From IMG/VR virus record IMGVR_UViG_3300009000_000003: a DNA stretch of 64,000 nucleotides; one strand, 5' to 3'. Positions within the stretch are counted from its first letter, which is position 1, and every line of letters starts with the position of its first letter. This DNA comes from a virus. This document shows positions 32,035 through 63,126 of this stretch, piece by piece. Made by a program: the position numbers and the translations under genes. The notes under the pieces are model-generated. The model made no database searches and had not been told where the DNA came from. It worked only from the letters and a program-made list of their open reading frames with translations.

Positions 32035-32381
32035 TTATCACATGTGTCTATGTATGCATTGAAAAGATGAATCCAGTCATCTAAACGCATAGTACATAGA
32101 ATGTCTTCTCTATCATCTTTTGTTATGGCTACAGGAATCTTACCATTAATATTAGCATCTTCTATAGCTTGTTTTAAAGCAGCTTTAATATTGCAACGTT
32201 TATGACGCTTAGCCTCTATATGAAATATAGGTATATCTACATCAGAAACTTCAGCTCCACCAGACCTAGTTTGGCCTATACCTCTCTTAGCTTCAAGAGA
32301 AGTATTATCAGTTATATACTTTGCAAGCTTACGTTCAAATGCTGCACCTTTTAATCTAGCACCTCTACCTCTACTCGTCAT
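32031..32381 (-). CDS. Hjc-type (PD-(D/E)XK) Holliday junction resolvase
   Basis: KGAAFERKLA...SDVD...HIEAKR; likely start MTSRGRG at 32381. Confidence 0.75.
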   Translation of the reverse strand: MTSRGRGARLKGAAFERKLAKYITDNTSLEAKRGIGQTRSGGAEVSDVDIPIFHIEAKRHKRCNIKAALKQAIEDANINGKIPVAITKDDREDILCTMRLDDWIHLFNAYIDTCDK

Positions 32382-33018
32382 CTTCTTCATCCTTTTCAAA
32401 AGAGACTTCATATTTTCTTGAATCCATAACTGAATCAATTAAATTGAAATCTAAAGCTTCTTGAGTAGAAAAATAAAAAGAAGTTTTATTTTTAAAATTA
32501 AGATTCCAAACTGATTTTTTCATTTCAGTTCTTTCTCGAATAATTTTATCTGCTACTTTTTGACAATGCTCATAATAATGAGCAAAAGATTTCATACCAT
32601 CAATAGAGTCTATGCTGCCGGAATGAACTACAGGTTGATGATAAAAGAAAGTAGTAGTAGGAGTAGCAATTCTATAATCAGCTGCACTTAAAATAATTAA
32701 TCCAGCACTACTACATAAACCAGTAGTAACTAAAATAACTGGGCAACTAATTGTTTTGATTGCATCATATATAGCAAGGCCATCAGTTAAAGAGCCTCCT
32801 TCTGTATTTAAATATACAGTAATTGGCTCTTCATCATTTAATTTTTCTAAATGAAATAATTGAGAAATAAATAGTTCTGCTTTTTCTCCAGAAACTTCAC
32901 CAAAAAAAGATAAAGCTCTAGTAGTATCACCAAAGAACTTATGTTCATAAGGCGACCAAGTAGAAAGATCTTGAGAAGATAGAAGTTCCTCAAGTAGTGC
33001 TTGTTTTAATTCGCTCAT
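32371..33018 (-). CDS. clpP: ClpP-like protease
   Basis: YLNTEGGSLTDGLAIYDAI, GLCSSAG (Ser), YHQP (His), EALDFNLIDSV. Confidence 0.85.
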   Translation of the reverse strand: MSELKQALLEELLSSQDLSTWSPYEHKFFGDTTRALSFFGEVSGEKAELFISQLFHLEKLNDEEPITVYLNTEGGSLTDGLAIYDAIKTISCPVILVTTGLCSSAGLIILSAADYRIATPTTTFFYHQPVVHSGSIDSIDGMKSFAHYYEHCQKVADKIIRERTEMKKSVWNLNFKNKTSFYFSTQEALDFNLIDSVMDSRKYEVSFEKDEEDDE

Positions 33019-38063: not shown

Positions 38064-39125
38064 CTAATTTAAAATATGTGGGCGACTCTCATTAAAACCA
38101 CTAGATGTAATTTTTACAAATTTTACATTTTCAGGTTTTAAATCTGAGATTTGTTTTATAGACAAATAAGAAATTGTAGAAGCTAAAGCAGACTTAACTT
38201 CTTTATTAAAAGTATAAAAAGATTTTGTTGGGTGTATTTTTTTATTATTTTGTACACCTTCTGGAACACCATTAATTTTACCACGCTTATCTTTTTGAAA
38301 TTCAGCAGAAGCTTGTCCTCTATAATATTTATAAGGTTTAGAAAAGAGTGGACGAATCCAACCTTCTGACTCATATATAGTTGAAAGCATACTACCTATC
38401 ATCACGCCATTAGCTCCAGCGGCTAGATATTTTGCAATATCACCAGTATTTTTAATTCCACCATCGGCAATTAATTTAAAGTTATTATATTCTTGAAATT
38501 GAAAATAACGATAAATTTCATAAACTGCCGAAAGGTTAGGATAACCGCAACCAGTAACGATTCTTGTACTGCAAGCACTACCAGGGCCAATTCCAATGCG
38601 AACATGATTACAACCAGCGGTATGAACAAATTCCGCTGCCCCAGGGGTTGCTACAGTACCTGACATTAAATTTTTACACCAAGAAAACCTAGAATAAGTT
38701 TCATATATTATTTCCATTTCTTGAGTAGCACCATGGGCTACATCTACAGATATATTTAAATAAAAATCTTCTGGAAGTTGTTTAGTTTGTTTTAAATATT
38801 CAATTAATTCCCAATCGGAATCAAAAGCTCCAACGCTATACCAAAAATTTTCTTGAGAATGAAATTTTAAAATAGCTTTAACTTTTTGATCTAAAGGTAA
38901 AAATCTACAAAATACTGGATTTTGATTTTCAGCAATCATAGCTTCAGACATATTTAAACCAGTAACCACATCCATGGGACTGGAAAAAATAAAAGATGAA
39001 TCAATAATAGCTTCAGATCTAGATTTTAAAAGACCAATAGAAGGTTGTAACAATACATCGTTAGTAGAAAGTTTTACTTGCGATGCATCTTCAAGACTAA
39101 AAACAAGATCGTTGTATTTTATCAT
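38064..39125 (-). CDS. guaC: IMPDH/GMP reductase family protein, probably GMP reductase
   Basis: SSPMD, VDVAHG, GIGPGSACSTR, IADGGI, YRGQAS, PEG; no CBS domains and no flap RY dyad. Confidence 0.75.
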   Translation of the reverse strand: MIKYNDLVFSLEDASQVKLSTNDVLLQPSIGLLKSRSEAIIDSSFIFSSPMDVVTGLNMSEAMIAENQNPVFCRFLPLDQKVKAILKFHSQENFWYSVGAFDSDWELIEYLKQTKQLPEDFYLNISVDVAHGATQEMEIIYETYSRFSWCKNLMSGTVATPGAAEFVHTAGCNHVRIGIGPGSACSTRIVTGCGYPNLSAVYEIYRYFQFQEYNNFKLIADGGIKNTGDIAKYLAAGANGVMIGSMLSTIYESEGWIRPLFSKPYKYYRGQASAEFQKDKRGKINGVPEGVQNNKKIHPTKSFYTFNKEVKSALASTISYLSIKQISDLKPENVKFVKITSSGFNESRPHILN

Positions 39126-40703: not shown

Positions 40704-41779
40704 AAAGCTCCTTTTTTTGTAGGTAAATGTGAGCCTAAATAATAGGTTTGAGAATCATTAAAATTAGTATTTCCGTAAGCATCTTGATAAATTACAGCAT
40801 AACCATTCATTGCGTTTTTAAATCTAAGATCAGGTTGGAATTGATAGGGAAGCTTATGAGCCATAGCCCCTTGCTCAATTAACATTTTTCCTGATACAAT
40901 TCCTTTATAAACTTTATGAGTATGCCCAACAACAATAGAATCAAAATCGTCGTAATGCATTCTTTCAGAAAAATGATCAAGTAATTTAACAACTGTAGCG
41001 CCAGGATATTTAGAGCCAAAACCACTAGGATGGCAAAAAATAGTTTTACCAACCCTAACATACCATGGATCATGTCTTTGATAGAGGACGTTATCGAAAT
41101 TAAGTTTTTCAATTAATTCTCCTCTGTCATTTAGTTTTTCACCATTGCTAATCTTAAACAATAGATCAGTACCAAATACTGAGCTAGCATCTTGATTAAA
41201 GCCTGCTTGTTTAACAGCTCGAGTAGTTCTATAATCATGGTTGCCGCATACTAATATTACTGTTTCAAAATGATCAGATAAGTAATGTACTAAATCAAAT
41301 GCTACTTTATATTCTTTTAAAGCAGCAATATTTTTGCTTTTAGAAAATGTACTAAATATATAAGCATCTAATATGTCGCCATTTAAAACAACAACATTAG
41401 CATCGGAATGCAAAGTTAAAGCAGCTTCCATATCTTCCCAAAGGAAAAATGGAACATGTAAATCACTAAAAGTAATGATTTTACGTTCTTTAGAAGTCGT
41501 AAGACCTAAATCTTTTTTAACAGATTTGGATCTATAGTCTTTAGTAGTTTTAATAATATAATCCCAAGAATCATTATAAGAAACAACGCTTTTAACATCA
41601 GGATCTCTAGAGATTTTATCTCTAGCAATCTTTCTGCGAATAGCATGTTCCGTTCTTTCAAAAGGAAAGCCTGGAACATTGTTTAAATGAAATTGAGAAT
41701 ATTTTTCTGCTAATTCTGAATTAGAATATTTGTTAATATTTTCAATTAGGAAGTTCTCTTCTTCAGGAGTCCACTTCAT
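40700..41779 (-). CDS. Calcineurin-like metallophosphoesterase with N-terminal HTH-like domain
   Basis: SDLH, NGDILD, GNHD and GHTH motifs; N-terminal WTPEEENFL helix. Confidence 0.85.
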   Translation of the reverse strand: MKWTPEEENFLIENINKYSNSELAEKYSQFHLNNVPGFPFERTEHAIRRKIARDKISRDPDVKSVVSYNDSWDYIIKTTKDYRSKSVKKDLGLTTSKERKIITFSDLHVPFFLWEDMEAALTLHSDANVVVLNGDILDAYIFSTFSKSKNIAALKEYKVAFDLVHYLSDHFETVILVCGNHDYRTTRAVKQAGFNQDASSVFGTDLLFKISNGEKLNDRGELIEKLNFDNVLYQRHDPWYVRVGKTIFCHPSGFGSKYPGATVVKLLDHFSERMHYDDFDSIVVGHTHKVYKGIVSGKMLIEQGAMAHKLPYQFQPDLRFKNAMNGYAVIYQDAYGNTNFNDSQTYYLGSHLPTKKGAL

Positions 41780-43022
41780 CTGTTTGTATTCTTTCTAAAT
41801 GTTTTAAAATTAATTTTATATCTGGATCTGTTTGTTCTACTTTTACTTTAGCTTTTATAATATCTGATTCTTTTAAACCAGTAGCTTTTATTTTTTCCCA
41901 TATAGAAGGAAACAATACAATCTCAGCACTAGCTGTAGAGTCATCTATTTCCATAAAAGCCATCATTTGTCCACGTCTAGTTTTAATTTCTTTTAACGAT
42001 AAAATTACTCCAGCTACTCTAGCATCTAAACCAGGAGTAAGTGAAGATAAATCTTCTTTATTAATTTGAATTAAATCCAAAGGATGACCGCCAATATAGC
42101 AGCCAATATAATTGGCTTGATCCATTATTTGTTTTAAAGTCAAAGGAACAAATTCTGTACGTTCAATTTCAGGAAAAGTAGGCTTTTCTTTTTTAGCTAA
42201 AGCAGGAAGCCTTTTTAATTTTTGATCTTCTAAATCTTGAAGCTCAGGTTCATAAATGTGAAGATTTGAAACATCTTCTTCTTTTTCTTTACCTTTAGAA
42301 ATACGATTAGTTATTTTTTTAACTTCATTGCGTAAATAATTACGTCTTTCAATTAAAGGTTCTACGCGCTCATTATGCCTTTGACGTTCTACATAGTCAA
42401 TTTCTCTTTGAGCATAATCTTCTAAATCTCTTACATATTGGTAAATACTAGAAGTATATTGAATCAAAGAATCTCGAGTATAACCCATTCGGTCAAAAGC
42501 ACCTGCATGGACTAAAGCTTCAAAAACTTTTGTATTTACTTTTTGTAAATTAACTCTATCGAGAAAATCTCTTACGCTTTTAAAAGGTAGATTACCTCTA
42601 GCTTTAATAATAGCTTTAGCTGCAGTTTTACCAACATCTCGAATAGCATTTAATCCAAAGTATATTTCATGATCTACAATGGTGAATTCATAACCGCTTT
42701 GATTAACACTAGGCGGATAAACATTTACATTAAAACGTTTGGCTTCATTAATATATTCAGGAGCTTTAACTGCCCAAGATTTAGGTTGTAAAGTTTTACT
42801 TCGAGTACTCATTAAGGCAGCAAAAAATTCTACAGGATAATGAGCCTTCATATATGCAGTAATATAAGTCAACATAGAATAACTTACACTGTGTGCTTTA
42901 TTAAAACAATTTGAAGCAACAAGACCATTAGCTAAAGTAAAATTATGAGTATTGGTGCTAGATGCAACACCAATATCATATACTTGTTGCTCTCCAAGAT
43001 ATTCTTTTTTAATAATTTTCAA
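41763..43022 (-). CDS. dnaE: DNA polymerase III alpha, part 3 (C-intein + fingers end, HhH, OB fold)
   Basis: TTG start; C-intein followed by CFNKAHSVSY, YMKAHYPVEF, FGLNAIRDVG, ALVHAGAFD, YIGGHPL and OB fold KTRRGQMMAFMEIDD. Confidence 0.95.
   Translation of the reverse strand: MKIIKKEYLGEQQVYDIGVASSTNTHNFTLANGLVASNCFNKAHSVSYSMLTYITAYMKAHYPVEFFAALMSTRSKTLQPKSWAVKAPEYINEAKRFNVNVYPPSVNQSGYEFTIVDHEIYFGLNAIRDVGKTAAKAIIKARGNLPFKSVRDFLDRVNLQKVNTKVFEALVHAGAFDRMGYTRDSLIQYTSSIYQYVRDLEDYAQREIDYVERQRHNERVEPLIERRNYLRNEVKKITNRISKGKEKEEDVSNLHIYEPELQDLEDQKLKRLPALAKKEKPTFPEIERTEFVPLTLKQIMDQANYIGCYIGGHPLDLIQINKEDLSSLTPGLDARVAGVILSLKEIKTRRGQMMAFMEIDDSTASAEIVLFPSIWEKIKATGLKESDIIKAKVKVEQTDPDIKLILKHLERIQTDEVDS
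42909..43022 (-). other. Split intein, C-terminal half (38 aa)
   Basis: MKIIKKEYLGEQQVYDIGV...HNFTLANGLVASN|CFN, closely resembling cyanobacterial DnaE Int-C. Confidence 0.95.
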
Positions 43023-43024
43023 AA

Positions 43025-43258
43025 TTAATCTTCCACTTTAATATTTAAATCAGACATTTTTAAAGGTCGACCAGAGTCGCCATGAAAAGAATAAAAAGTA
43101 ATTCCTTTAACATGGTTTTTTAATTTATCAAAACTATCAATTACAATATTTTTTGTTTCATAACCATCAGGAATATATTTAGTAGCATAAGTATTTATGC
43201 CACAAAGAGATCTTTGCCGATAGTATTTTGGATTTTTATAAGAAGCAATAATACGCAT
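43025..43258 (-). CDS. Hypothetical protein
   Basis: RBS AAAGGA; ends 2 nt before the dnaE part 3 start. Confidence 0.55.
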   Translation of the reverse strand: MRIIASYKNPKYYRQRSLCGINTYATKYIPDGYETKNIVIDSFDKLKNHVKGITFYSFHGDSGRPLKMSDLNIKVED

Positions 43259-43277
43259 AATATTCCTTTATTAAAAA

Positions 43278-43314
43278 TAAAAAAAGGGCAGCTTGAATAA
43301 ACAAGCCACCCTTT
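43278..43314 (-). terminator. Rho-independent terminator after the fibre cassette
   Basis: Minus strand AAAGGGTGGCTTG-TTTATT-CAAGCTGCCC followed by TTTTTTT. Confidence 0.8.
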
Positions 43315-43358
43315 AAAAACAAGAAATTACTTTATTTGTTAAAGTGTATTAGTTTTGA

Positions 43359-46300
43359 TTAAACTTGATACCAGTCGGTAGAATTAATTGCTATTAAACG
43401 TAAAGTTTGTTTAGCAGCTAAAGTTATTAAAGTTGCACTAGAGCTTTGACCAGACTCATAGATTACATCGTTCCCATCTGCTGATACGGTGATACTATTA
43501 CTATTAGTATTAATATAAATCATTTCTAACCCTTGAGATGCTGAAGGTAATGTAGCATTGCTAGAAGTAACGATAATATGATTACCTAAATCATATTTCA
43601 TCGTGCCTTCAAATTCAATCCCACTTGACCCGCCTGTTATTTTTGCTTGGGCTACAAGATTGCTTGAAATAATTACATCACTTGCAGACCCAGCACTTAT
43701 AGTTAAATCGCCTGAATTTGCATAAAGTTCTGGAGTAATGACGCTATCAGCAGTCAAGTCGCCACCAGTCAAAGTAGCAATACCATCTGTGAAAGTGCCG
43801 GAAGCTACTTTACTAAGATTTGCAATTTCTCTATTTGAATTAACTACAAGAGCTTTATTTGCAGCAGCAGTGCCATCAGTAATATCGTCAATTTTCTCTA
43901 AATCAGCTGCATCAAGAACAGCGCTACCTACAGTAATAGTAGTAGCAGAAATACTACTTGCTAAATCAAAATCAAGAGAATTTGTTGCACTATCTGCAGA
44001 AATAACAATGTTCCCTCTAGCTTCAGAAGAAAATATAACAGTTTGACCAAGATTAGGAGAAATAGTAAGACCACCAATACCTGCGCCAGTAGTACCTTTA
44101 ATAAAGAAACCAGAATTATCTAATTTGGCATTAGTAACACCACCATCTTTAATTTCTACAGAACCAGCTGTAACATCAAAATTAGCACCATTAAACTTAG
44201 CAACACCAAGAGTTGCCGCAGTAGCAGTTTCTACAGAAATAGAAAGCGCATCCGTATTAGCGTCATATGAAGTAGAGAGATTAGAAGTGGTTGCTCCACT
44301 TACAAGAGCTCCTGCAAGATCAGTTACTTCAGCATCAAAATCAGTAATTTGAGTATGATCAATACTAATATTTTGATGAGTAGCAGCTGTTAAACGACCT
44401 TGAGCATCAACACTAATAGACAAAGATTTAGAAGCTTCACCATAATCGCCCGCAGTTACATTTGTATTATCAAGTGCAAAAGAGACTTGATCATCGCTGA
44501 CTGTAGAAGTAAGAGCAGTTCCACCAACAAAAGTAAGAGTGCCACCAAGCAATGCAAGAGAATCCGCACCAGAATCACCTTTAAAAGCAAGGCTTGTAGC
44601 AACATCAGCAGTGCTGATACTGCGGACTCTACCACGAGTATCTACTTCAACTACAGGGATTTCAGTAGCAGAGCCATAAGTATCTGCAGTGAGGCCTGAA
44701 ATAGTTGCTAAAGCAATTGTAGCTGCACCATTTTCTTGGTTGCTATTAGCTAAAACAAAATCTGAATTAGAGCCGCTTTCATTAAGTGTAGCAACATAAT
44801 CACCAGTAGTATGAGTACCAAGATCAACTGAATCACTTTGCATTAATACGCTAACTGTAGCAGTACCAGTACCATTAGTAGTTACTGAGCCAGCCACATC
44901 ACCTGCAATAGCAATTGTAAAATTTGAAGCTAAAGCAGAAGCAGTGTCTGCATTCCCTTCAAGAGCACCACTAAATGTAGTTGCTGTAATTTTTTGCATT
45001 CCAGCAATAACAGTATTCGTAGCGCCAAGAGTGAGAGCGGTGCTACCTAAAGTAGTAATTGAATTAGCTAACTGAGCATTAGAAACGCCTGCAGCCTTAA
45101 TACTAACTGCGCCAGAAGTAACACTAAAATCTGAAGATGCAAATGAAGCTACACCCTTATTACTTTCAGAAGCATCTTCTGCAGCAACAGTAAGAGTATT
45201 AGCTACATCGTCATAAGTTAAAACAATAGCTTCACCTTGAGTAAGAAGATTGTCAACTCGATCGTCTACTCTTTCATCAGTGTAATAAAGATTAGTACCT
45301 TCTGCTAAATTATCAGTGCTGTGATTAGAGAGTGTGCTGATTTTACCTATAAAAGTAGTAGCAGTAACAGTATCAAATGTAACATCATCTGTAGTTCCTA
45401 CAGCCTGACCAATTGAAATTGTTGAAGAACCAGTAATTGTAATACCAGTTCCAGCTTCAAGAATGTTGTTTACTGCTGAAGGAAGATCAGAAAGTTTAGC
45501 AGAGTCAATTGTTGAATCAACAATATTTGCATTAGTAATAGTTCCAACTTTAAGAGTATCGGCGTCAATAAGAATAGACGCGCCATCAACATTAACACTA
45601 AGCTGACCATTAGTATCAGCTAAACCAGCACCGTCAAGTCCTGTAACTTTACTTGCAGCAATTTGACCATCAGTAAGAGTCAAAGTGCCTGTTGAAACAT
45701 CTAAAGCTTTTACTGTACCTAAAGAAGTTAATTCAGAACCTGCAAAGCTGTAAGTTCCAGCTGCAAAAGTACCTTCTGAAACCTTATTTGCAGGAATTTG
45801 ACCTGCAGCAAGAGTTAAAGTAGCAGCACTTACATCTAAAGTAGAACCATCAGCAACTGTAATATCTTTAGAAAGTAAAGCTTGTTCAAATTGAATTTGA
45901 GAGTCAGCAGTATCTAAAACGATATAATCTGAAGCTCCAGCAGAAATGCTCAAAGCGTCTTGTTTAGTTTCAGGAAGCTTAACAGTAAATTGAGCAGTAT
46001 CTAAAGCAGAACCATCAATAGTTAATTCAGCGTCATTAGATGCAATTACTGAAGAGCTAACAGTAGAAGCAGTCAAAGTAGAATCTAAAGAAACATTTCT
46101 AAAACCAGAAATATCTTTAGAAGAATCAACGACTACAGCAAGACCTTGAGAAACTGAACCAACAGTAACACCATCAAGTAAATTTAATTCAGAAGCAGTA
46201 GATGTAACTGCAGTTGCACCTAAAGTAATTCCTCCCTCAGGAGCAATAATTTTAGTTTTAATTGTACCTAAAGAAGCAGAACTAAAGTCAACTGTTGTGC

Positions 46301-46682
46301 CATCGCCGCTTAAAGGGTCAGTAGTAAGACCTTCAAACGTTTGCCAAACTTTATCGCTATCACTAGCATCGCGTGCAAAACCGCTATAAACTGGAGTACC
46401 ATCAGTATCTTCAGCACCAACAAGACCAATGTCAGCAGTAGTACCAGTATTAGTTTTACCTAATTTAATTAATGTTTCATCAACAGCAAGTTGAGAAACT
46501 GTAACTTCATTTGCATCTCCAGTAATCGTAAGATCGCCTTCAATAGTAACGTCACCTTTTGCAGTAAGGTTTACAGTATGAACGTCTTTCCAAGGCACTG
46601 TAGAAGTACCAAGTGTATCTTGTCCACCTTCAGCATAACTTGCACCTGAAGGTGCTGTTTTTTGTCTTAAGCTTGAAGCCAT
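43359..46682 (-). CDS. Long Thr/Ser/Ala/Gly-rich tail or capsid fibre protein (1107 aa)
   Basis: RBS AGGAG; fibre motifs TDNLAEGTNLYYTDERV, YG...VDTRGRV / VDAQGRL, and internally duplicated GVAxF...F.VT.G.V.IK..GV.NA.L. Confidence 0.75.
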   Translation of the reverse strand: MASSLRQKTAPSGASYAEGGQDTLGTSTVPWKDVHTVNLTAKGDVTIEGDLTITGDANEVTVSQLAVDETLIKLGKTNTGTTADIGLVGAEDTDGTPVYSGFARDASDSDKVWQTFEGLTTDPLSGDGTTVDFSSASLGTIKTKIIAPEGGITLGATAVTSTASELNLLDGVTVGSVSQGLAVVVDSSKDISGFRNVSLDSTLTASTVSSSVIASNDAELTIDGSALDTAQFTVKLPETKQDALSISAGASDYIVLDTADSQIQFEQALLSKDITVADGSTLDVSAATLTLAAGQIPANKVSEGTFAAGTYSFAGSELTSLGTVKALDVSTGTLTLTDGQIAASKVTGLDGAGLADTNGQLSVNVDGASILIDADTLKVGTITNANIVDSTIDSAKLSDLPSAVNNILEAGTGITITGSSTISIGQAVGTTDDVTFDTVTATTFIGKISTLSNHSTDNLAEGTNLYYTDERVDDRVDNLLTQGEAIVLTYDDVANTLTVAAEDASESNKGVASFASSDFSVTSGAVSIKAAGVSNAQLANSITTLGSTALTLGATNTVIAGMQKITATTFSGALEGNADTASALASNFTIAIAGDVAGSVTTNGTGTATVSVLMQSDSVDLGTHTTGDYVATLNESGSNSDFVLANSNQENGAATIALATISGLTADTYGSATEIPVVEVDTRGRVRSISTADVATSLAFKGDSGADSLALLGGTLTFVGGTALTSTVSDDQVSFALDNTNVTAGDYGEASKSLSISVDAQGRLTAATHQNISIDHTQITDFDAEVTDLAGALVSGATTSNLSTSYDANTDALSISVETATAATLGVAKFNGANFDVTAGSVEIKDGGVTNAKLDNSGFFIKGTTGAGIGGLTISPNLGQTVIFSSEARGNIVISADSATNSLDFDLASSISATTITVGSAVLDAADLEKIDDITDGTAAANKALVVNSNREIANLSKVASGTFTDGIATLTGGDLTADSVITPELYANSGDLTISAGSASDVIISSNLVAQAKITGGSSGIEFEGTMKYDLGNHIIVTSSNATLPSASQGLEMIYINTNSNSITVSADGNDVIYESGQSSSATLITLAAKQTLRLIAINSTDWYQV

Positions 46683-46704
46683 ATTTTTAATCTCCTGTTT
46701 TTAA

Positions 46705-49700
46705 TTATTCTGAATATCCAGTGAATATCGCATCACCTGTTGAAATGTCAATTTCAAAGTGTTTGTCTTCGTGTTTGATTGATTTGGAACCGAAGAACAC
46801 TAGATCTCCAGCACCAGAATTAGCAATTACTTCAGCTAAGTCAATCTCAAAAGGACCTAAATGACCAGAAATCTTAATAGTTTCTGGAAGATAAACAATC
46901 TTAGGACCAACTCCACTCCACTCTTGTTCTAAAAGACCACCATCTCTAGTATTCAGGGAAGCAATTTCTGAAACTAAGTCAACAACTTGAGACTGAGCAA
47001 TTTGAATATTTTGCAAAGTTGCAGAAGTGATCATACCATGAGAATCAAAAGCAAGACTTACAGTTTTAGCTGCATCATCTAAAGTTCCAGCAGTTACAGA
47101 ATTAGTAATACTAAATTCTTCATCACTTAAAGTAAGCCCAGAACCTGCAGTATAAGTTGTATCAGTATTCACAACAGTTTCAGTAGCTGTGGAAACTGAA
47201 GTAACGTGCCCATTGCTATCTAAAGTAATGCTTTGGATATAAGTTCGGTCAGAATTACTCAAGTTAAGAGTAGCCGCAACAATATCTGGGTGAGTAGTTA
47301 AATAACCTACGTTATTAACTAATTCAGATATATTATCATTAGGTTGCAAAGCAGAGTCAGCAGTAGTACCTTGAGCTGTAGTAGCATAGTTAGTTGAATC
47401 TGTATAGGCCGCAGTACCAAGCCCAAGAGCATTTTTCAGCGTTGTTTCAGCTGTAAGATCTGCATCAATAGCTGCTACAATTTCTTGTGCAGTTTGATCA
47501 GCAGTAGCTCCAGGTTCAATGCCAGCAACTTTATCGACTACAGTTTGTAAACCAGTAATAGCAGAAATAGGGTGTTGATCAGAAAGAGTTCTTTCAGTTA
47601 AAGCATCGTGGCTTGTAGCTGAGAATGCAGCATTAAGAGAAGATTGACGCCCTGAAAGCTGAGCAACAGAATTGATTTCACATTTATAAGCACCAGAAGT
47701 TTTAGCTTGAAGAACAATCTTGTAAAGAGGAACGAGCTCTGGAACAGAAAAACCTAAGTTAACAAACTCTTCAGCTTCAGCAGCGGCGACAGTTGTATAC
47801 TGATCGTGGCCCATCATCAATTTAATAGGATATGTAGAATCATTAGTAGCAACCATATAATAGCTGATATAATTGCCATTAGAAACGGTTGCTAAAGATC
47901 CAACATTATTAACAATTTGATTAAATTGAATACTAGTGGCATTTGCAAGCCAAGGAACACTAGTTGGTGAAGTTTGAACGACTGCTGAACCACTTTGGTG
48001 AATTACAGGAATTTCCGCATCACCGCTTAAAACTTGCTCATAAGGATTAGCTGAAGAACCATGCTGAATAACGTGTACAAGATCTTCATCAGCAATTGTA
48101 ATTTGACCTAAAGACAAAGTTACATCAGTGTCATCTTCTAATTGATAGCTAAGAGCGCCGCCACTTCTCCAAATAGCACCTACATCGAGGTGTTGAGAAA
48201 GATGCCATTGAGTATCTCTATGAGATGAGTGTCTTTCATCACCAAAAATAATTGCTTCGGAATTAGTAGCGTCCCAGTAAACATAAGCAACAAGTAAATC
48301 TTCAATTAACGAAGGATGTGCTCCAATAGCCAACTCTTGTAATGAATCTGTTGATGGATTATATTTAATATAACGACCACCAGCAGAATTAGTAATTTGA
48401 AGAGTTTTAGAAGAAGAAACAGTGATCTCTTGACCGCGATACCAAAGAGTAAATGAATCACCGACAGGTGACAAAGTAAAAGTGTTGGTAGAATTATCAA
48501 AAGAAAGAGATGAATCATCCCTGTTGGGGAAACCAGTCATATCTAATGTAATAGAGCCAACAGCCTCGAGAGCCTCTGAACTAGTTATAAAATCAGAGAT
48601 TTCAGAACTAATTTTAGAAGAAGACCATAAGCTATTTGCAGATACAACCGCATCATCAATATAGGTGTCAGCATTAAGACCTTGAGGACCTGTAGCACCT
48701 TGAGCTCCAGTTAGCCCTACAGGGCCAGTAGATCCCTGCGCACCAGTAGCGCCGGTAGGTCCTTGAAGACCTTGAGGGCCAACTTCACCCTGAAGGCCTT
48801 GTTCTCCCTGCGCTCCAGTCGGTCCTGCAAGACCTTGAGGCCCTTGTACCCCGGTAGGTCCTTGAGAGCCTTGTAGTCCTTGAGGACCTGTAGGTCCGAT
48901 TGAACCTGCAGCTCCAGTTGCACCTGTGGGTCCAACTGGACCTTGAATGCCTTGCTCACCTTGCGGGCCTTGCTCACCTTGGAGACCCTGAGGGCCTTGT
49001 GGCCCCGTTGCCCCAATCGCACCAGTATCACCAGTAGCTCCAGTAATACCTTGAGGCCCGGTTGGGCCAGTCAAACCAATTAAACCTTGAGGGCCTTGTG
49101 GCCCGGTAGCGCCAATCGGTCCTTGGATGCCTTGAATACCTTGCGGACCGATTTCACCTTGTTCACCTTGTACCCCCTGAAGGCCTTGAGGTCCTGTAGC
49201 ACCAGTCAAGCCAATAGAGCCTTGCGGCCCAACAGGGCCTGTTGGGCCTTGAATACCTTGTTCGCCTTGAGCCCCAGCCGGGCCTTGTTCACCTTGAGCT
49301 CCAGTAGGACCTGTAAGTCCGGTAGGGCCAACTGCTCCAGTAACACCAGCTAAACCTTGCTCACCTTGGGGGCCAGTAGGGCCTTGGATACCCTGAGCTC
49401 CTTGGGCCCCGGTGGGGCCAACAGGTCCTTGAATTCCCTGGTCTCCCTGAAGCCCTTGAGGGCCTTGAGGCCCTGTTGCGCCAGTTAAACCTGTAGGTCC
49501 AGTAGGGCCTGTAGCACCTTGTGGACCTTGAGTTCCTGCAAATTGTCCAAAATCACTCCAAGTAGTACCGTTATAAACAATAAGATGATTTGTTAAATCA
49601 TTAGTTAAATAAGAAATAGAAGTAGAGCGATTATCTAAAGTTACTACAACAAAAAATAAATTAGAAGTAGTAATGGTGTCATCAGATTCAATTTGAGTGA

Positions 49701-50556
49701 CAATAGTGTCGTTAAGCTCACCAGAATAATCAACATTAAAAGCTTGACCTGGGTCACCTTTAGGACCCGTAACTCCTGTTGGTCCAACAGGTCCCTGAAG
49801 GCCTGTTGTTCCTGCTAGCCCTTGCAAACCCTGAAGCCCTTGAGGGCCTTGAGCGCCAGTAGGGCCAATGGCACCAGTTGGGCCTTGCGGCCCTTGTGGA
49901 CCAATAAGACCTTGCGCTCCTGTAGGTCCTACGGGACCTTGGACACCTTGAATTCCTTGAAGACCTTGAGGGCCAACTTCGCCTTGTAAACCCTGCATGC
50001 CTTGAGGCCCCTGTGCACCTGTAGCACCTTGAGGGCCAGTTGGACCGATATCTCCTTGATCTCCTTTAAGGCCAGTTGCTCCGGTAAGTCCGGTTGGACC
50101 TGTAAGACCTTGCAATCCCTGAGGGCCTGTAGGGCCTCTTTGACCAATAGCCCCTGTGGGGCCTTGAGCTCCATCAAGACCGGATGCACCTTGAGGGCCA
50201 GCTTCACCTTGAGGCCCTTGTAGACCGGTTGGACCTACTAATCCTTGAGGACCAGTAGCACCCGTTGGTCCTTGTGGCCCAACTAAACCTTGAGGGCCTT
50301 GTAAGCCTTGAAGGCCTTGTGGTCCGGTTGGACCTTGCAATCCAGTAGGTCCCGAAGCTCCTGTTGGTCCTACTGGCCCAGTAGGACCAACAATACCTGA
50401 TCCGGCTCCTCCAATAGCAGTAGCAATTTTTGCATCAATATCGGCTTCAGGTAAACCAAGAATAATTTTACCATCTGCATCTTTTTGATTTGGCTTGTCA
50501 AACAGATTGTCTAAATCTAAAGACCCTCTGCGTAAGTCTGTTCTTCTATTAGCCAT
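46705..50556 (-). CDS. Collagen-like fibre protein (1283 aa)
   Basis: RBS AGGAG; two long Gly-X-Y blocks, then [10 protein letters not shown] and fibre-type C-terminal motifs. Confidence 0.85.
48673..49536 (-). repeat. Collagen Gly-X-Y block 2 (about 96 triplets)
   Basis: 9-nt periodicity encoding [15 protein letters not shown]. Confidence 0.9.
49741..50397 (-). repeat. Collagen Gly-X-Y block 1 (about 73 triplets)
   Basis: 9-nt periodicity encoding GPT/GPQ/GLQ. Confidence 0.9.
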
Positions 50557-50569
50557 CTATGTTCTCCTA

Positions 50570-50935
50570 TTAATCGTCTATTGAATATCTTGCAAGTAGA
50601 ACAGGAGTATCATCTGGACTAGCTTTTTTTAAACCTACATCCCAAACAAACTCGAAGGTACTAGAGCTTGTAATTCTGTAATCGCCTAAAGAGTCAGGAG
50701 TTTCTTGAGGAGAAAGTACCAAGCCATCTAAAGTAATGATTATGCTGTTTCTTTTAGCGGGAAATGGTAGCGTAAATAAAAACTTGCCATCAGGATAATC
50801 AACATCGTCATGTTCAGGAATCTGATCAGTAAGATCAAAAGTTCTAACAGTATGTTCTTGATTATAAATATTAACAGTATTTACTGTTATTGTAGAATTA
50901 TCTACTGCGACTAATTTTGGATAAACTGGATCCAT
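50570..50935 (-). CDS. Small virion structural (fibre-associated) protein
   Basis: RBS AGGAG; FTLP...IIITLDGLVL...GDYRIT..TFEF...LLARY beta-domain pattern. Confidence 0.6.
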   Translation of the reverse strand: MDPVYPKLVAVDNSTITVNTVNIYNQEHTVRTFDLTDQIPEHDDVDYPDGKFLFTLPFPAKRNSIIITLDGLVLSPQETPDSLGDYRITSSSTFEFVWDVGLKKASPDDTPVLLARYSIDD

Positions 50936-50944
50936 ATTTATCTC

Positions 50945-51316
50945 CTAAGCAGGTGTGTAAAAAATAGTGACGTCTGTTTGATCATTTATCAATGCTGTAT
51001 ATTCGCCAAGAATATATAACTTATTAAATTCACTATCTATATAAAAACCATCACCTAGCATAGATTCAAGTCTTGGAATAATGTCACCATTAATAAATAA
51101 CATTACAAATTTTTCAAAACCTTCCTTTATATAAGGGAAGATTTCATAAAATGAATCATTTTGATCAAATGAAGAAAAAGCTAAAGCTTTTTGTAAAGGC
51201 AAATTGTCTACAATATTTCCAACAGTAGTAGTTTTATCAACATTCAAAGTATCAATTGTAATGTTGCTATCAGAAATAACTGTAACGGGTGTTCTTGTTT
51301 GAGCATGAGTCGCCAT
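50945..51316 (-). CDS. Small virion structural protein, probable paralog of 50570..50935
   Basis: RBS GAGG; DSNITIDTLNV vs DNSTITVNTVNI; LFINGD...VTIFY. Confidence 0.55.
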   Translation of the reverse strand: MATHAQTRTPVTVISDSNITIDTLNVDKTTTVGNIVDNLPLQKALAFSSFDQNDSFYEIFPYIKEGFEKFVMLFINGDIIPRLESMLGDGFYIDSEFNKLYILGEYTALINDQTDVTIFYTPA

Positions 51317-51380
51317 ATAAACCTCGCCTTTTTGTTTAGTTTTAATATATTTTTGCTATTATTTTCAAGAGTATAGAAAA

Positions 51381-51698
51381 TTATATATTATCTTTTGTAG
51401 AAAAAATATCTATTTCTTTAGTAAATAATAAATCAATTGGGAGCATTTGATTATTAGAAGACATAAATTTATGGTCTTCTGTACAATCAACATAATCTCC
51501 ATTTTCTAAAGTGTATCTGTAAACAGTTTTAATACCTTTATCGTGCCATTGAGTGACTTGTTGAGCAACCCAAGGGGTAGCTTGAGTTGAATCATTACTA
51601 AGTACAAAACCAGAATATTGAGCTTTAACAATATCTTCAATAGTTCTAGATCTTTTTGTAAGAGTAGGAATTAATATTTCGGTATTTCCTGCTAAACA
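51381..51698 (-). other. Split intein, N-terminal half (105 aa)
   Basis: CLAGNTEILI...QWHDKG...YTLENG...CTEDHKFM...QMLPID..F..EIDI, resembling cyanobacterial DnaE Int-N (blocks A and B). Confidence 0.95.
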
Positions 51699-52997
51699 AT
51701 AATCAGCAAAACCTAAAATATCTTTCCAAAGATCTTTAGCATAGTCAGATAACAAGCCACCTACTTTTACAGAATTTTCTATAAATTTTTCTTCATATTT
51801 TTCAAGAACGGAAAGTTTTTTCTTACCCATAGCTCGTCGAACATCATCTGCTTCTTGTTGAGTAAAACCTGCTAAATCGGTAAATAATTTCATAATTTGT
51901 TCCTGATATATTAAAGTCCAATAAGAAGCTTTTAGAATTTCAGCAACTTGAAGAGGTAAATCTTCAGGCGGAGAATTATTTAATTTATTAGCAATATAAG
52001 TTTTATCAAGACCAGCTTGCAAAGGGCCAGGGCGGTTGATAGCACTGATAGCACTAAGATCCTCTATGCTAGCGGGTTGTATGTCATTAATTAATCGTTT
52101 AGCGGTACCGGATGTTTCCATTTGAAAAATACCAGTTAAACAACCTAAATTTAAATATTTATAAGCTAACTCGTCGCCATCTGGTATAGAATAAGGCTCT
52201 AAATCTATGTTGTAATTTTGTTTAATTAAATTTTTACATTCTTTGATAATAGATAAAGTGTCAATACCTAAAAAATCAAACTTAATAAGCCCAAGCTCTT
52301 CACATTCATCTTTATCATATTGAGTAATTCTTTCTGCTTTACTATTAGACCAAACAGGGACAGTATCATGTATTTCTTTATCTGAAATAATGACACCTGC
52401 TGCATGGATGCCAAAATTAGCAACCATGTTTTCTATTCTATCAGCAAATTCTAAAAAAGCAGAATATCTTTGATCATCAGAAAGGTCGGGATTTTCTTCA
52501 AGAACTTCTTCTAAAGTAGGTTCTTTGCCATACTTAGGAGGAGGAAACATTTTTAATAACTCGTTAAGTTCAGAAGAATCACCTTCGTGTATTCTATAAA
52601 AAGAACGAGCTAATGATTTTGGTTTAAAAGTTCCATGAGTTATAATATTGGCAACTCTCTCACGCCCCCAATAATCAATGCACCATTGTATTGCTTTCTC
52701 TCTATCTAAAGCATCATGGTCTATATCAATATCGGGAGTCGCACCCCCAATAGTATCTGATCTCATTTTATTAAAATCAAACACATCGGTAAGTCCAGTA
52801 ATATAAAGTAAAATACTATTATATGGATTTTCTAAAAAAGAATGTTTAGACTGTAAACAAGATTCAATTCTGTCTAAATCTTCTAAAGAAATCATAGCAA
52901 CTTCTTGATGGAGAAAATCTGGATCTACTTTTTGATAACGATCTTCAATAATATAAGAATCTATTTCTTTTAAAAAAGTTTCTCGAGATTTAAACAT
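51381..52997 (-). CDS. dnaE: DNA polymerase III alpha, part 2 (palm/thumb/fingers + N-intein)
   Basis: PDIDID, GIHAAGVII, LIKFDFLG, GIFQME, AINRPGP, IYQEQIM, RRAMGKKK, then FADY|CLAG. Confidence 0.95.
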   Translation of the reverse strand: MFKSRETFLKEIDSYIIEDRYQKVDPDFLHQEVAMISLEDLDRIESCLQSKHSFLENPYNSILLYITGLTDVFDFNKMRSDTIGGATPDIDIDHDALDREKAIQWCIDYWGRERVANIITHGTFKPKSLARSFYRIHEGDSSELNELLKMFPPPKYGKEPTLEEVLEENPDLSDDQRYSAFLEFADRIENMVANFGIHAAGVIISDKEIHDTVPVWSNSKAERITQYDKDECEELGLIKFDFLGIDTLSIIKECKNLIKQNYNIDLEPYSIPDGDELAYKYLNLGCLTGIFQMETSGTAKRLINDIQPASIEDLSAISAINRPGPLQAGLDKTYIANKLNNSPPEDLPLQVAEILKASYWTLIYQEQIMKLFTDLAGFTQQEADDVRRAMGKKKLSVLEKYEEKFIENSVKVGGLLSDYAKDLWKDILGFADYCLAGNTEILIPTLTKRSRTIEDIVKAQYSGFVLSNDSTQATPWVAQQVTQWHDKGIKTVYRYTLENGDYVDCTEDHKFMSSNNQMLPIDLLFTKEIDIFSTKDNI

Positions 52998-53060
52998 GTT
53001 AAACTTTCAAATAATAAAAAGATGGAAATTACCTAAAGTAAGAAACTGCAAAGGTGGTTG

Positions 53061-53405
53061 TTAAACCACCCAAGATTTGTTTAAATAATATTCAGGATTT
53101 TCTATAGATATATTAAATACTTGGGAAAGATTTTGTTTTTCTTGAATAGAAAATAATCTTTCGTTTAAAGAAAATAAAATTTGTAAAACTTTTTGAGTTT
53201 GACTATTTGCTTCACAAATAATTGTATAGTTAGCAGTCAAGTTATAAAGCAAAGCACTTATAATGTAGTTTGTTTCATTACCTACAAAAAATTTTGCACA
53301 TTTATAATTAGATTCGTCAGTAAAACACTTTTTTAAATTCTTAAATAAAGAACTTGTTGGATCTACATTTAAGTTAAAAAGCGAGTTATTTGTATCCATA
53401 TGCAC
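53061..53405 (-). CDS. Hypothetical protein between dnaE parts 1 and 2
   Basis: ORF track; no recognisable motif. Confidence 0.5.
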   Translation of the reverse strand: MHMDTNNSLFNLNVDPTSSLFKNLKKCFTDESNYKCAKFFVGNETNYIISALLYNLTANYTIICEANSQTQKVLQILFSLNERLFSIQEKQNLSQVFNISIENPEYYLNKSWVV

Positions 53406-53412
53406 CTGCTTG

Positions 53413-53640
53413 TTATCTTACAGATGTCCAATCTGTATAATTTGTAAAATCACATTTCATAATTTTAACATCAGTTCTCTGAGTTAATCTTCTGTAAGAT
53501 CTAGCATCAGATCTAGTAGTGTGTAATGTCCTACCTTTAATAGTTATAGGTGTATTTGTCGTTTGATCGACAACAGCATAAAGAGTGGTAGCACAAGTAT
53601 CTATAGGAGTAACTAGATTAGTCATAATTATTTCTTTCAA
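53413..53640 (-). CDS. Hypothetical protein between dnaE parts 1 and 2
   Basis: Overlaps the part 1 stop; may start at the internal MTNLV. Confidence 0.5.
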   Translation of the reverse strand: MKEIIMTNLVTPIDTCATTLYAVVDQTTNTPITIKGRTLHTTRSDARSYRRLTQRTDVKIMKCDFTNYTDWTSVR

Positions 53641-54947
53641 AAAGGTAAAGTAAACTGATCTGCTTGCTCAGCCATTTGTTTATTAAAAATAAGAGGGGTA
53701 GCAGCACGACCCTCATTAAGAAAACGAGAAAACATAAGATCGTATTTAATTGGATCAATTTCAGTAATGCCTAAAGACCAGGCTACAAGAGAACCAGCAG
53801 CAGAACCTCGACCGGGCCCATGCATTACTCCATAATCTCTAGCACCATTCATAAATTGAGAAACAATTAACATATAATCAGAAAAACCCATACGTTTAAT
53901 TACATTTAATTCATGATCAAGCCTATCTCGATATTCTTGAGGAGGCATATCATTAAACCTATTGTATAAACCGTGTTGAGATTCTAAAGTAAGGAATTCA
54001 AAACTTTTATAAGTTTCTGGAAGATCTTGAAACTTAGGATAACGGTTCATTCTATCCATAAAATAAGTTTCATTATCTATCAAATCAGCTACATGAACTG
54101 TATTAGATATGACGTCGTAAGGCATATTTTGTTGGTTAGCTTCATTCCAAGTCCAATCATGAGATGCAAAATGAACATCTATTGGTCCGAAACTAAATCT
54201 TTTTTCATCAGAAAGTACAGTTTTAGTTTGCATACACAAAGCGGCTTCATGATGTTGTTTATCATGTTCATGAGTGTAATGACAATCACATGTAAGTACC
54301 ATAGGTAAATTATGTTTAGAAGCAATTTCTTGCAAAACTTTATTTACAGCTTGTTGCTCTTCATCTTTATGGAGTTGAAGTTCCACAAGAAATCTATCTT
54401 TAAACATTTCTTTATGATGTAAAATAAGATTTTCTGCGGCTTTTTTCTCACCCATAAGGATGAGTTGACTTGCTCTACTACCCAAACAAGTAGTGGTAGC
54501 AATAATACCTTCAGAATATTGAGCAATAAGAGCATCATCAATACGTGGTTTACGATACATACCTTCAGTATAAGCATAAGAACTGAGCTTCATGAGGTTA
54601 TGTAAACCAATATTATTTTGAGCTAACAAAATCAAATGATAATAAGACTTGCCTAAATGGTCAGGTTCTTTTGCAGTTCTATCATTTATAGTATAATAAG
54701 CTTCCATACCGATAATTGGTTTTATATCTTGTTTTTTACATTCTTTATAAAATTTGTAACTACCTGATACATTACCATGATCTGTCATCGCTACAGCAGG
54801 CATACCCATTTGTTTTGCATAAGCAGGAAGCCTATTAACTTTATTAATTCCATCTAAAAGACTATATTCTGTATGTACATGCAAATGCACATAAGGCTTT
54901 TCAGACGGATTCTGATGTTGGTTTTGATGATTGCATGTCGTTGCCAT
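53637..54947 (-). CDS. dnaE: DNA polymerase III alpha, part 1 (PHP domain + N-terminal palm with GRGS)
   Basis: HLHVHTEYSLLDG, TDHG, GMEAY, YHLILLA, KPRID, TCLG, CDCHY, GPGRGSAAGSLVAWSLGITEIDP, FSRFLN. Confidence 0.95.
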   Translation of the reverse strand: MATTCNHQNQHQNPSEKPYVHLHVHTEYSLLDGINKVNRLPAYAKQMGMPAVAMTDHGNVSGSYKFYKECKKQDIKPIIGMEAYYTINDRTAKEPDHLGKSYYHLILLAQNNIGLHNLMKLSSYAYTEGMYRKPRIDDALIAQYSEGIIATTTCLGSRASQLILMGEKKAAENLILHHKEMFKDRFLVELQLHKDEEQQAVNKVLQEIASKHNLPMVLTCDCHYTHEHDKQHHEAALCMQTKTVLSDEKRFSFGPIDVHFASHDWTWNEANQQNMPYDVISNTVHVADLIDNETYFMDRMNRYPKFQDLPETYKSFEFLTLESQHGLYNRFNDMPPQEYRDRLDHELNVIKRMGFSDYMLIVSQFMNGARDYGVMHGPGRGSAAGSLVAWSLGITEIDPIKYDLMFSRFLNEGRAATPLIFNKQMAEQADQFTLPF

Positions 54948-55341
54948 TTAATAAATTGCTTTCTTTTCCAGTACACACAAGCTTAAAATGTTCAAAGTAA
55001 TTGGGTTGCTCTTCAATTAAAGCACGTAAACCCATCTTACCACCAGTGCAAAGAGTTTCTTCTTCACTTGTCGTGGGATTTTGCCACTTTACTGCAGAGC
55101 CAGCAAAACGAACAAAACCCATGTCTTTTGCAAGACCAATGACATCCATGATTTTATCAGTGCCTTTAGCACATTCAAATTCAAATTCAGCTACTTTATT
55201 AAGAGCTGGAGCAACTTTGTTCTTAACTATTTTTACTTTCATAGCCAAAGTATTAGGAGAGTCAGAGCTAGGCTTAGAACTAACCCTGAGCCTAACAGAA
55301 GCGTAAAATGGAATAGCATTGCCACCTGAAGTTGTTTCTGG
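54901..55341 (-). CDS. recA: RecA exon 2
   Basis: PETTSGGNAIPFYASVRL, VKIVKNKVAP; in frame with exon 1 after intron removal (spliced product about 355 aa). Confidence 0.92.
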   Translation of the reverse strand, partial: PETTSGGNAIPFYASVRLRVSSKPSSDSPNTLAMKVKIVKNKVAPALNKVAEFEFECAKGTDKIMDVIGLAKDMGFVRFAGSAVKWQNPTTSEEETLCTGGKMGLRALIEEQPNYFEHFKLVCTGKESNLLNGNDMQSSKPTSESV

Positions 55342-56282
55342 CACGAAACTCCACAAGTTTACCATACTTGTGGCGTGGACTATATCTTCATCTTTCTCTC
55401 GAAAGAGCCTTGCGCTTGGGGAACGTACCAATCTCATTCCCTACTCTACTCACTTCCATCTTTCGATGTGTTTTCGATAGTCTCTACACCTTCCTCTATT
55501 AAAGAGGCTTGGCACGGTATTGCCCAATAAATGGAGGGGTTCACCGTTAGCCCGTAATGGACACCCACTGGTAGTGGTTCACAAGGTTTTTTTCCTAGAG
55601 TCGCCTCTAGGGGAAACCGTAGAAACTGAAGTATAGTTTCTTTAGCAGTGTCAATATTCTCTTCTAATATAACGCAATAATGATAACCCATAGAAGTTAG
55701 CTCTTTGATTTTTCTTTGATCACTCTTCTTTTGTTTTTCGAAAGAGTGAGCCCAAGAGCCATGAATATCTATACAATACTTTTGACCAAGATAAAAATCA
55801 ATAGACCATTGATTAATTCGTTTTTCATAGATATAAGCTAAATCTAATTCATCTAAAATTTCTTTAAGCTTTTCTTCTAAACGATTCATGGAAACATTTC
55901 TTCTAACAGAAACGCCCATGGCTTTTCTTTTGTGGCCAACAGCAGATTCACTACAGCCCCAAAGATCAGCTAGTTTAACATGGCTAAGATAAGGGTCTTT
56001 AAGCATTTGGATAGCTTCAGGAGTATTGGGAATTTTCTTACGATACATACGTTGTCTTTTTAAACCTAAGGCTTTTAAAAGACGGTAAACTGTTTCGTCA
56101 CAAAAATTTAAATACTCTTGAAGTTCTGTTAATTTCATTAAATTGTAATTCTTTTGAACAAATTGAATTTGTTCTTGAGTAATTTCTTTATTAAAAGTGA
56201 CACCGTTTATAGTAGTTGACATATAACCTCCTGTAAAGTTGGCATATAGTAAACTACACAAAACAATACTTATTTCAAGTTA
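55342..56282 (-). mobile_element. Group I intron (941 nt) in recA
   Basis: Exon 1 ends in U (GGA AAU) and the intron ends in G before CCA GAA. Core elements: P-like AACGGTGAA, Q-like AATACCGTGCCAAG, R GTAGAGACTAT, S AAGATATAGTCC (P7), P3 CCTTGTG/CGCAAGG, P9 CCACAAGT..ACTTGTGG. IGS GTTTCTACGGTTTCC at 55612-55626. Confidence 0.93.
55446..56222 (-). CDS. Intron-encoded homing endonuclease, Vsr-like/EDxHD type with N-terminal HTH-like repeats
   Basis: RBS GGAGG before the ATG at 56222; LEEKL...IDFYL...IDIHGSWAH...SDQRK...GYHYCVI. Confidence 0.8.
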   Translation of the reverse strand: MSTTINGVTFNKEITQEQIQFVQKNYNLMKLTELQEYLNFCDETVYRLLKALGLKRQRMYRKKIPNTPEAIQMLKDPYLSHVKLADLWGCSESAVGHKRKAMGVSVRRNVSMNRLEEKLKEILDELDLAYIYEKRINQWSIDFYLGQKYCIDIHGSWAHSFEKQKKSDQRKIKELTSMGYHYCVILEENIDTAKETILQFLRFPLEATLGKKPCEPLPVGVHYGLTVNPSIYWAIPCQASLIEEGVETIENTSKDGSE

Positions 56283-56909
56283 ATTTCCGTACATGACACC
56301 AATATTCATGCGAACTTGGTTAATAAATAAATATAAACAATCATGATCTACACTAATTTTGCTAATAGCTCGGAGAGCTTTAGAAAGTAATCTAGGTAAA
56401 TCACCAACGCCCATCTCATTCATAAGTCGTTTAGTATCTCGTTCTGATTGAGCAGCGTCAATAGAGTCAAATACAATAACGCCTACTTTACCAGTCTTGC
56501 CAAGATCTTGGCAAAGCTGAAGCGCTTCTTCAGCAGTATCAGGGTAACAGAAAACCATACGATCAGGGTCGATTCCCATAGACTTAATAAGATCTAAACC
56601 AGTAGTACGCTCTAAATCTACAAATACTGGGACTCTATCGTAACCATAAGTATCTACATAAGACTTAACGATTTGAAGGCAAAGACTAGTTTTGCCAGCG
56701 CTTGGAGGACCAAATATTTCTACAACTCTATCTGAAGGTAAACCTCCGACACCTAAAGCAGAGTCAAGAGTTACAGAACCTGTAGAAATTGCTTTTACTT
56801 TTTCATACTTTGGACCAAGAGAAATAGAATCTTCTTTGCCAAACTTTTTACTAATACTATTAGCAATTGCATCAATTTCTGGAATACCTGTAATTTTTTT
56901 AATTGCCAT
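56283..56909 (-). CDS. recA: RecA exon 1
   Basis: ISTGSVTLDSALGVGGLP, EIFGPPSAGKT, VFDSI, FINQVRMNIGVMYGN. Confidence 0.95.
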
Positions 56910-62713: not shown

Positions 62714-63126
62714 TAAAAGCCCCAAAGAGGTTTACGTTCGCGAGAAGTAACTGCACCGGGATCAGATTGTGCTGCAACCTCTCTAGCTGCGCTAACTTTA
62801 GCTTTAGAAGGAGCCGAAGATGCAGATGTAGCAGCTAGTGGGTCTGAAGTAGATGCATAAGAATTTAAAATAGAATCTTTAAGCTCTTTAGAGAAAGCTA
62901 AACCATCTTCATTCTTGAATCGAATATCATCAAAATATTTTTCGACTTTTTGACCATCTTCCATAATAGTACCTTTGTGGCTTGGAACAGATACAAAAAG
63001 ACCATTAGAACCTTGAATGATTTTAAAGCCGTCAATCTCCATGATATCGTCAATAATAACAGAAGCAATACCTTTAAGCTTTGATGCTGAATTAATTTTT
63101 CTTACATTAATCGTATATGAAAACAT
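62713..63126 (-). CDS. spoVG: SpoVG-family nucleic-acid-binding protein
   Basis: LKGIASVIIDD...GFKIIQGSNGLFVSVPS...ILNSY matches the SpoVG consensus. Confidence 0.85.
   Translation of the reverse strand: MFSYTINVRKINSASKLKGIASVIIDDIMEIDGFKIIQGSNGLFVSVPSHKGTIMEDGQKVEKYFDDIRFKNEDGLAFSKELKDSILNSYASTSDPLAATSASSAPSKAKVSAAREVAAQSDPGAVTSRERKPLWGF

Follow-up and report, generated by a model that had tools for sequence, protein, structure and literature searches.

The window analysed here, a 64,000-nucleotide stretch of the IMG/VR virus record IMGVR_UViG_3300009000_000003, encodes a naturally split DnaE intein of the cyanobacterial kind, located at insertion point 'a' of the alpha subunit of DNA polymerase III (Pol III) in the replicative polymerase of a phage. 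The polymerase, DnaE, is encoded on the minus strand by three open reading frames (ORFs) in the region from 41.7 to 55 kb, the second of which ends with the N-terminal half of the intein (Int-N) and the third of which begins with its C-terminal half (Int-C). From these sequences we infer that trans-splicing in all likelihood joins pieces 2 and 3 of the phage DnaE. It is very probably needed for replication, because no family A or B polymerase was detected in the complete relatives G006 and G007 (and in G004), in which DnaE was the sole polymerase found.

Identification of the two intein halves

The ORF of piece 2 (51381-52997, minus strand, 538 aa) ends with ...ILGFADY↓CLAGNTEIL...QWHDKG...TEDHKFM...QMLPID...KDNI-stop (arrows mark junctions), and the ORF of piece 3 (41763-43022, minus strand, 419 aa) begins with MKIIKKEYLGEQQVYDIGV...HNFTLANGLVASN↓CFNKAH. 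A preliminary description of this DNA, made from the letters alone, had quoted strings for both halves, with outer limits at 42909 and 51698, had given FADY and CFNKAH as the exteins and had pointed to a residue other than His before the terminal Asn. The strings are present on the minus strand and the limits are exact; the translations bear out both exteins, with the junctions FADY↓C and N↓CFNKAHS, and the penultimate residue of Int-C is Ser, as in Nostoc-type alleles. Int-C starts with a TTG codon 7 nt 3' of a GGAAG sequence and 2 nt past the stop of a 77-aa ORF, and this start aligns with that of the cyanobacterial Int-C.

In phmmer searches of all PDB chains, the top matches of Int-N were exclusively DnaE inteins (5.4e-16 to 6e-11: 7qil, Npu 4lx3 and 4qfq, Ssp 1zd7), and so were those of Int-C, which was queried together with 13 extein residues (2.8e-9 to 1e-3, with the Npu DnaE Int-C at 3e-9 to 4e-7). 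The next intein family, RecA/PI-MtuI, followed at an E-value of ~0.01, and the remaining inteins at 0.01 or worse. The Pfam model Intein_splicing reached 19.6 bits on piece 2, which is below its cut-off, and the assignment to the family is thus based on the PDB matches and on the alignments described below. A chance match is ruled out, and by their sequences both halves are assigned to the cyanobacterial-type DnaE split intein. All defining features of this family that can be tested are present, and the specific DnaE-intein matches together with the phage gene context agree with the preliminary description in classing the element as a divergent, viral member at the same insertion site.

A word-indexed search with Int-N returned only 3 proteins and missed the cyanobacterial copies; in its place we scanned DNA for a motif and searched exhaustively with a profile. 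The DNA scan for WHD(R/K)G-x19-DHKFM, in which each prokaryotic species was represented by a single genome, gave at least 120 matches, and every named organism among the matches listed is a cyanobacterium. From the matches listed we could read 111 cyanobacterial Int-N, all of them preceded by FAEY (the loci read ...KFAEY↓CLSYDTEIL), and in three of the scanned genomes also an Int-C followed by CFNKSHS (...ASN↓CFNKSHS). The insertion site and the split point of the window are thus those found in real cyanobacterial genomes, as the preliminary description had stated. Some cyanobacterial genomes additionally contain extra partial Int-N copies, and others Int-N-like domains with C-terminal tails unrelated to DnaE (L027, L057, L103; L023, L068, L129; P0139, P0149). 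Two of these proteins with non-DnaE tails (P0139 and P0149) were set aside, as was P0140, a synthetic laboratory GFP-Ssp DnaE intein-mCherry construct that occurred among the natural matches of the representative search.

Conservation of the splicing residues

We aligned 29 Int-N sequences (11 viral, 18 cyanobacterial) and 14 Int-C sequences. C1, L2, G55, T73, H76 and I88 are invariant in all Int-N, I3, V14, D16, F28 and N38 in all Int-C, and the +1 Cys is universal across the aligned copies. The window carries C1, T73, H76, D16', N38' and the +1 Cys, and the catalytic residues are all retained there, as they are in no fewer than 15 related viral contigs. Its Int-N is collinear with the 18 cyanobacterial copies. 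Identity to cyanobacterial halves amounts to 33-43% for the Int-N of the window and to 54-57% for its Int-C. Within the phage clade, identity to the window amounts to 32-59% for Int-N and to 58-75% for the adjacent extein. The catalytic residues have thus stayed fixed although Int-N is more divergent than the extein beside it, which points to selection on the residues used in splicing and is what one would expect if the intein has to splice.

Phage context and relatives

The window is phage DNA with 25-32% G+C, which encodes a baseplate wedge protein, a primase-helicase, a ribonucleotide reductase (RNR), a Cas4-like nuclease, a resolvase and ClpP; its source is an uncultured marine myovirus-like phage of ~155 kb. 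Relatives form a clade in IMG/VR (L001-L009, L132-L140), which is present in Tara Oceans and reef metagenomes; among its members are a genome of 161.8 kb that has terminal repeats and one of 158 kb that is rated complete. All contigs of the clade show FADY↓C...stop and M(K/Q)I...N↓CFNK, and dnaE is split at this site in every related contig that covers it. Among cultured phages no close relative of the window was found, with identities of at most ~32% for DnaE and of less than 28% for the primase and baseplate proteins.

A polymerase gene in three pieces

The dnaE gene is interrupted at a further site, upstream of the intein, where no intein is present and which the preliminary description had not mentioned. 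Piece 1 terminates just past SRFLNEGR, and piece 2 consists of an 85-aa leader, the remainder of the palm, which contains the PDIDID aspartates, and the fingers; this intein-less break is located directly before the catalytic PDIDID motif (region 52742-53640, minus strand). Homologues of the 75-aa and 114-aa ORFs in the break are found at the same place in relatives. A group I intron at the break was considered and rejected, there being no Rfam match at E-values up to 1. The leader of piece 2 was also compared with the end of piece 1, of which it might be a decayed copy; BLASTP gave no alignment, although a relic below the detection of BLASTP is still possible.

Other insertions were noted in dnaE genes of the relatives. 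In piece 2 of one of them, the Rfam search that was negative for the window does detect a group I intron at AIN↓RPGP (L140:10897-11219, RF00028, 66.8 bits), which lies inside a 1.25-kb insertion, and in some relatives an additional, contiguous intein with LAGLIDADG and Hint domains brings piece 1 to 800-817 aa (P0004-P0008).

Origin of the intein

A second viral group carries the same allele in a different form. Its two representatives, L130 and L131, are identical over 2,661 nt and are located in a 204-kb contig (G004) and a 143-kb contig with 45% G+C. Here Int-N runs in frame into a helix-turn-helix (HTH) domain and a LAGLIDADG endonuclease (L130:1082-2294, 378 aa in all), and Int-C has a separate start, an ATG preceded by a GGAG site, and shares 29 nt with the end of the endonuclease ORF in another frame. 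The site (FADY↓C...ASN↓CFNKSH), the split point and a related downstream gene order are shared with the window, from which this group differs by the endonuclease fused to Int-N and by the overlap of Int-C with that ORF. The dnaE gene of the second group is present in four pieces (L191:3090-9357), with further small ORFs and a 189-aa ORF between them. Such an endonuclease-bearing form is what an origin of the split requires.

Piece 1 of the window is 42-46% identical to the DnaE of Synergistota, Clostridia and Desulfovibrio and only 35-38% to cyanobacterial DnaE; for the palm-fingers part beside the intein, cyanobacterial proteins score slightly above the sample from these other bacteria. In the tree of the palm-fingers exteins the phage clade stands alone (100), the cyanobacteria (99) are placed with other bacteria (93), and the second viral group is placed weakly (83) with other viral DnaEs. 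In the Int-N tree, a branch with values of 99/95 parts the phage clade from the cyanobacteria plus the second viral group, whose Int-N groups with the cyanobacterial ones and is 64% identical to a Leptolyngbya copy. By these comparisons the exteins of the window are judged not to be cyanobacterial, and since the same intein allele is found in three DnaE lineages that are not related to each other, horizontal transfer of the intein is implied. Separate phylogenies of intein and extein had been proposed in the preliminary description, which expected the element to be informative about the origin of its family. Their topologies conflict, with the phage clade apart from the cyanobacteria in both, and with a related virus that keeps a homing endonuclease on Int-N this expectation was justified. 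An ancestral, endonuclease-bearing intein would have moved between phage and cyanobacterial dnaE and would then have become fixed in its split form.

The region between the intein halves

Int-N and Int-C are separated in the window by 8,358 bp with five co-oriented genes (Table 1). A variable cassette is found at the same place in the relatives, in which the distance between the halves ranges from 2.8 kb (L137) to ~12 kb (L140 and L001, on one contig). Homologues of the 123-aa cassette gene directly follow Int-N in L132, L134 and L135 (tblastn), and the 1107-aa fibre-like protein is partly homologous to a cassette gene of L135. The region of the collagen-like gene has 48% G+C compared to a background of ~30%; this value, at 48000-50000, may reflect Gly/Pro codon use rather than foreign origin. 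A weak match to the Twister-sister family within this gene (49840-49895; 26.5 bits against a cut-off of 34 bits) is probably due to chance.

It is possible, if doubtful, that phages are the reservoir of this intein family, that an endonuclease-bearing form resembling that of the second viral group seeded cyanobacterial dnaE, and that in the clade of the window the halves of this essential gene now serve as conserved bookends for the exchange, by recombination, of fibre (host-recognition) cassettes among co-infecting relatives.

Table 1. Coordinates of the dnaE pieces, the intein halves and the genes between them
Feature	Position	Strand	Size	Evidence or remarks
dnaE piece 1	53637..54947	-	436 aa	PHP (PF02811, 3e-49) and first 100 palm positions (PF07733 3-102, 1.5e-35)
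Two small ORFs in the break between pieces 1 and 2	53061..53640	-	75 aa and 114 aa	no Pfam match
dnaE piece 2, extein	51699..52997	-	433 aa	PF07733 positions 100-260, PF17657 fingers; ends with FADY
Int-N	51384..51698	-	105 aa	CLAGNTEIL...KDNI; PDB phmmer 5e-16 to DnaE inteins
Stop codon directly after Int-N	51381-51383	-
Two small cassette genes	50570..51316	-	123 aa and 121 aa	no family in Pfam or PHROGs
Collagen-like fibre protein	46705..50556	-	1283 aa	Pfam Collagen 1e-76, 8 stretches
Fibre-like protein, rich in Ser/Thr/Ala/Gly	43359..46682	-	1107 aa	weak PHROG 'structural protein' match
Terminator-like hairpin closing the fibre genes	43283..43314	-	13 pairs and T run	consensus match only
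ORF with stop 2 nt before the Int-C start	43025..43258	-	77 aa	no family found
Int-C	42909..43022	-	38 aa	MKIIKKEYLGEQQVYDIGVASSTNTHNFTLANGLVASN; TTG start, GGAAG ribosome-binding site
dnaE piece 3, extein	41763..42908	-	381 aa	+1 Cys (CFNKAHS), HhH (PF14579, 1e-28), OB (PF01336, 4e-7)

A further gene of the window, recA, is broken as well (54901-56909, minus strand). Its N-terminal part is located at 56280-56909 (Pfam RecA 3-198) and its C-terminal part at 54901-55437 (RecA 197-260), with a 271-aa ORF between them (55446-56261) that has weak matches to HNH and intron-nuclease PHROGs. This break leaves no space for intein halves, and the marine relative L193 encodes an intact RecA of 341 aa at the same place. 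Other minus-strand genes of the window encode a Whirly-like protein (63406-63879, 2e-13), a SpoVG-like protein (62713-63126), an IMPDH/GMP-reductase-like protein (38064-39125) and the ClpP mentioned above (32371-33018).

Trans-splicing and alternative explanations

In the reading that we favour, piece 2, with the palm, the fingers and Int-N, would be translated separately from piece 3, with Int-C and the HhH and OB domains, the two halves would fold into a single HINT domain, and Cys1, Thr73/His76, Asp16', Asn38' and the +1 Cys would perform trans-splicing. The spliced product would be a chain of 814 residues with the junction FADY-CFNKAH, and the polymerase would be formed when this chain pairs non-covalently with piece 1, which contributes PHP and the beginning of the palm. 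We infer this docking of piece 1 and the history of the intein, as we do splicing itself. Several observations weigh against the proposed reading. The Int-C of the window has a 3-residue insertion before the HNF motif, and two relatives (L003 and L005) have NNF in its place. The match of acidic and basic charges between the halves, a trait typical of the cyanobacterial alleles though not a strict criterion of the family, is weak in the window compared to the cyanobacterial inteins: the net charge of Int-N is -4, compared to about -10 (range -5 to -14) in cyanobacteria, and that of the first 14 residues of Int-C is +1, compared to +3/+4; across the phage clade the values span -9 to +3 for Int-N and -1 to +3 for the head of Int-C. 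In addition, neither tree is rooted and the viral branches of the intein tree are long, so that the intein may have been transferred in either direction. Finally, no link to a host emerged from psbA, from cultured relatives (DnaE, primase-helicase, baseplate) or from a neighbouring phosphoesterase gene, which has no relative in 185,579 species genomes.

That the arrangement arose by joining cyanobacterial DNA to a phage contig during assembly is practically out of the question, as both halves are in frame with phage-type exteins whose identity to cyanobacterial DnaE is only 34-38%, and as more than 15 contigs, which come from different metagenomes and one of which has terminal repeats, show the same architecture. 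The halves might also merely dock, the intein having lost splicing and serving as a non-covalent clamp for pieces 2 and 3. Non-covalent assembly is evidently tolerated in this polymerase, given that piece 1 joins the enzyme without an intein, and the block F His is gone in two relatives; yet a clamp needs none of the residues required only for the chemistry (C1, the block B T/H, the terminal Asn and the +1 Cys), which are invariant across very divergent copies, and we therefore regard a loss of splicing as improbable. Somewhat less improbable, though still unlikely, is the use of the split as a timing device, in which the position of dnaE-c behind the fibre genes and a terminator-like hairpin would let a separate transcription unit set the amount of complete polymerase. 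The hairpin at 43283-43314 indeed separates the fibre genes from the 77-aa ORF and dnaE-c, and the start of dnaE-c is coupled to that ORF. However, the hairpin is no more than a match to a consensus, the region shows no excess of terminator-like sites (5 compared to 8.4 expected), and the ORF upstream of Int-C is not kept in the relatives.

The preliminary description had further suggested that, in a host with a split dnaE, phage and host halves could cross-splice into chimeric or poisoned polymerases. Cross-reaction among cyanobacterial DnaE alleles is established, and the insertion site and the junction residues of the window are the same as in cyanobacteria. However, the identities to the cyanobacterial halves given above are low, charge steering between the halves would be weak, the exteins are not of cyanobacterial type, and neither a cultured relative nor any other link to a host was found, with psbA being absent from five related viral genomes, three of them complete. 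Moreover, when 301 genomes from the cyanobacterial phylum were sampled, no genome below 2.5 Mb was found among the 91 strong carriers of the intein (E-value of 1e-37 or lower); 9 of the 20 non-carriers listed by size measure 1.6-2.2 Mb. Cross-splicing with host halves is thus unsupported and, in our view, very unlikely.

Comparison with known systems

The Npu and Ssp DnaE split inteins and consensus derivatives of them are standard tools for protein ligation. The many natural variants of the viral branch, which share the insertion site and differ in their charge patterns, are candidate ligation pairs that may be orthogonal or behave differently. With the same allele present in three unrelated DnaE lineages and in a virus in which it is fused to an endonuclease, the origin and spread of the split form become testable. 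In addition, a phage can evidently run its sole replicative polymerase from three genes, by way of one junction that would be spliced covalently and one that would be non-covalent.

Insertion point 'a' of Pol III alpha is the site of the cyanobacterial DnaE intein, and the inteins known at this point are all split and cyanobacterial (Novikova et al. 2015, PMC4760082). DnaE split inteins have accordingly been treated as a cyanobacterial speciality that goes back to one breaking event (PMC2677866, PMC4760082), and in the literature searched we found no report of this intein allele in a virus. 'Fractured genes', including three DnaE loci, have been described in environmental phage-like DNA (Dassa et al. 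2009, PMC2677866). These resemble the window in that a phage-like replication gene contains a split intein with foreign genes between its halves, but the DnaE inteins among them occupy different insertion points and have only ~40% similarity to those of cyanobacteria (PMC2677866). Their gaps hold a free-standing homing endonuclease, the feature by which fractured genes are defined, whereas none of the five genes in the gap of the window is recognised as an endonuclease: Pfam shows no endonuclease family among these ORFs, two of which were also scanned in PHROGs.

The closest known counterpart is the split DnaE intein of cyanobacteria (Ssp, Npu). It shares with the window the host protein, the site FA[E/D]Y↓C...N↓CFNK[S/A]H, the split into parts of ~100 aa and 35-38 aa, and the catalytic residues, including the Ser before the terminal Asn. 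The window differs in that the intein is found in a phage, between exteins that are not of cyanobacterial type, with a 3-residue insertion in Int-C and much weaker charge complementarity, and in that its dnaE has a second, intein-less break. Whereas the two halves of the cyanobacterial intein are encoded at distant loci, those of the window lie 8.4 kb apart on one strand, around a set of fibre genes.

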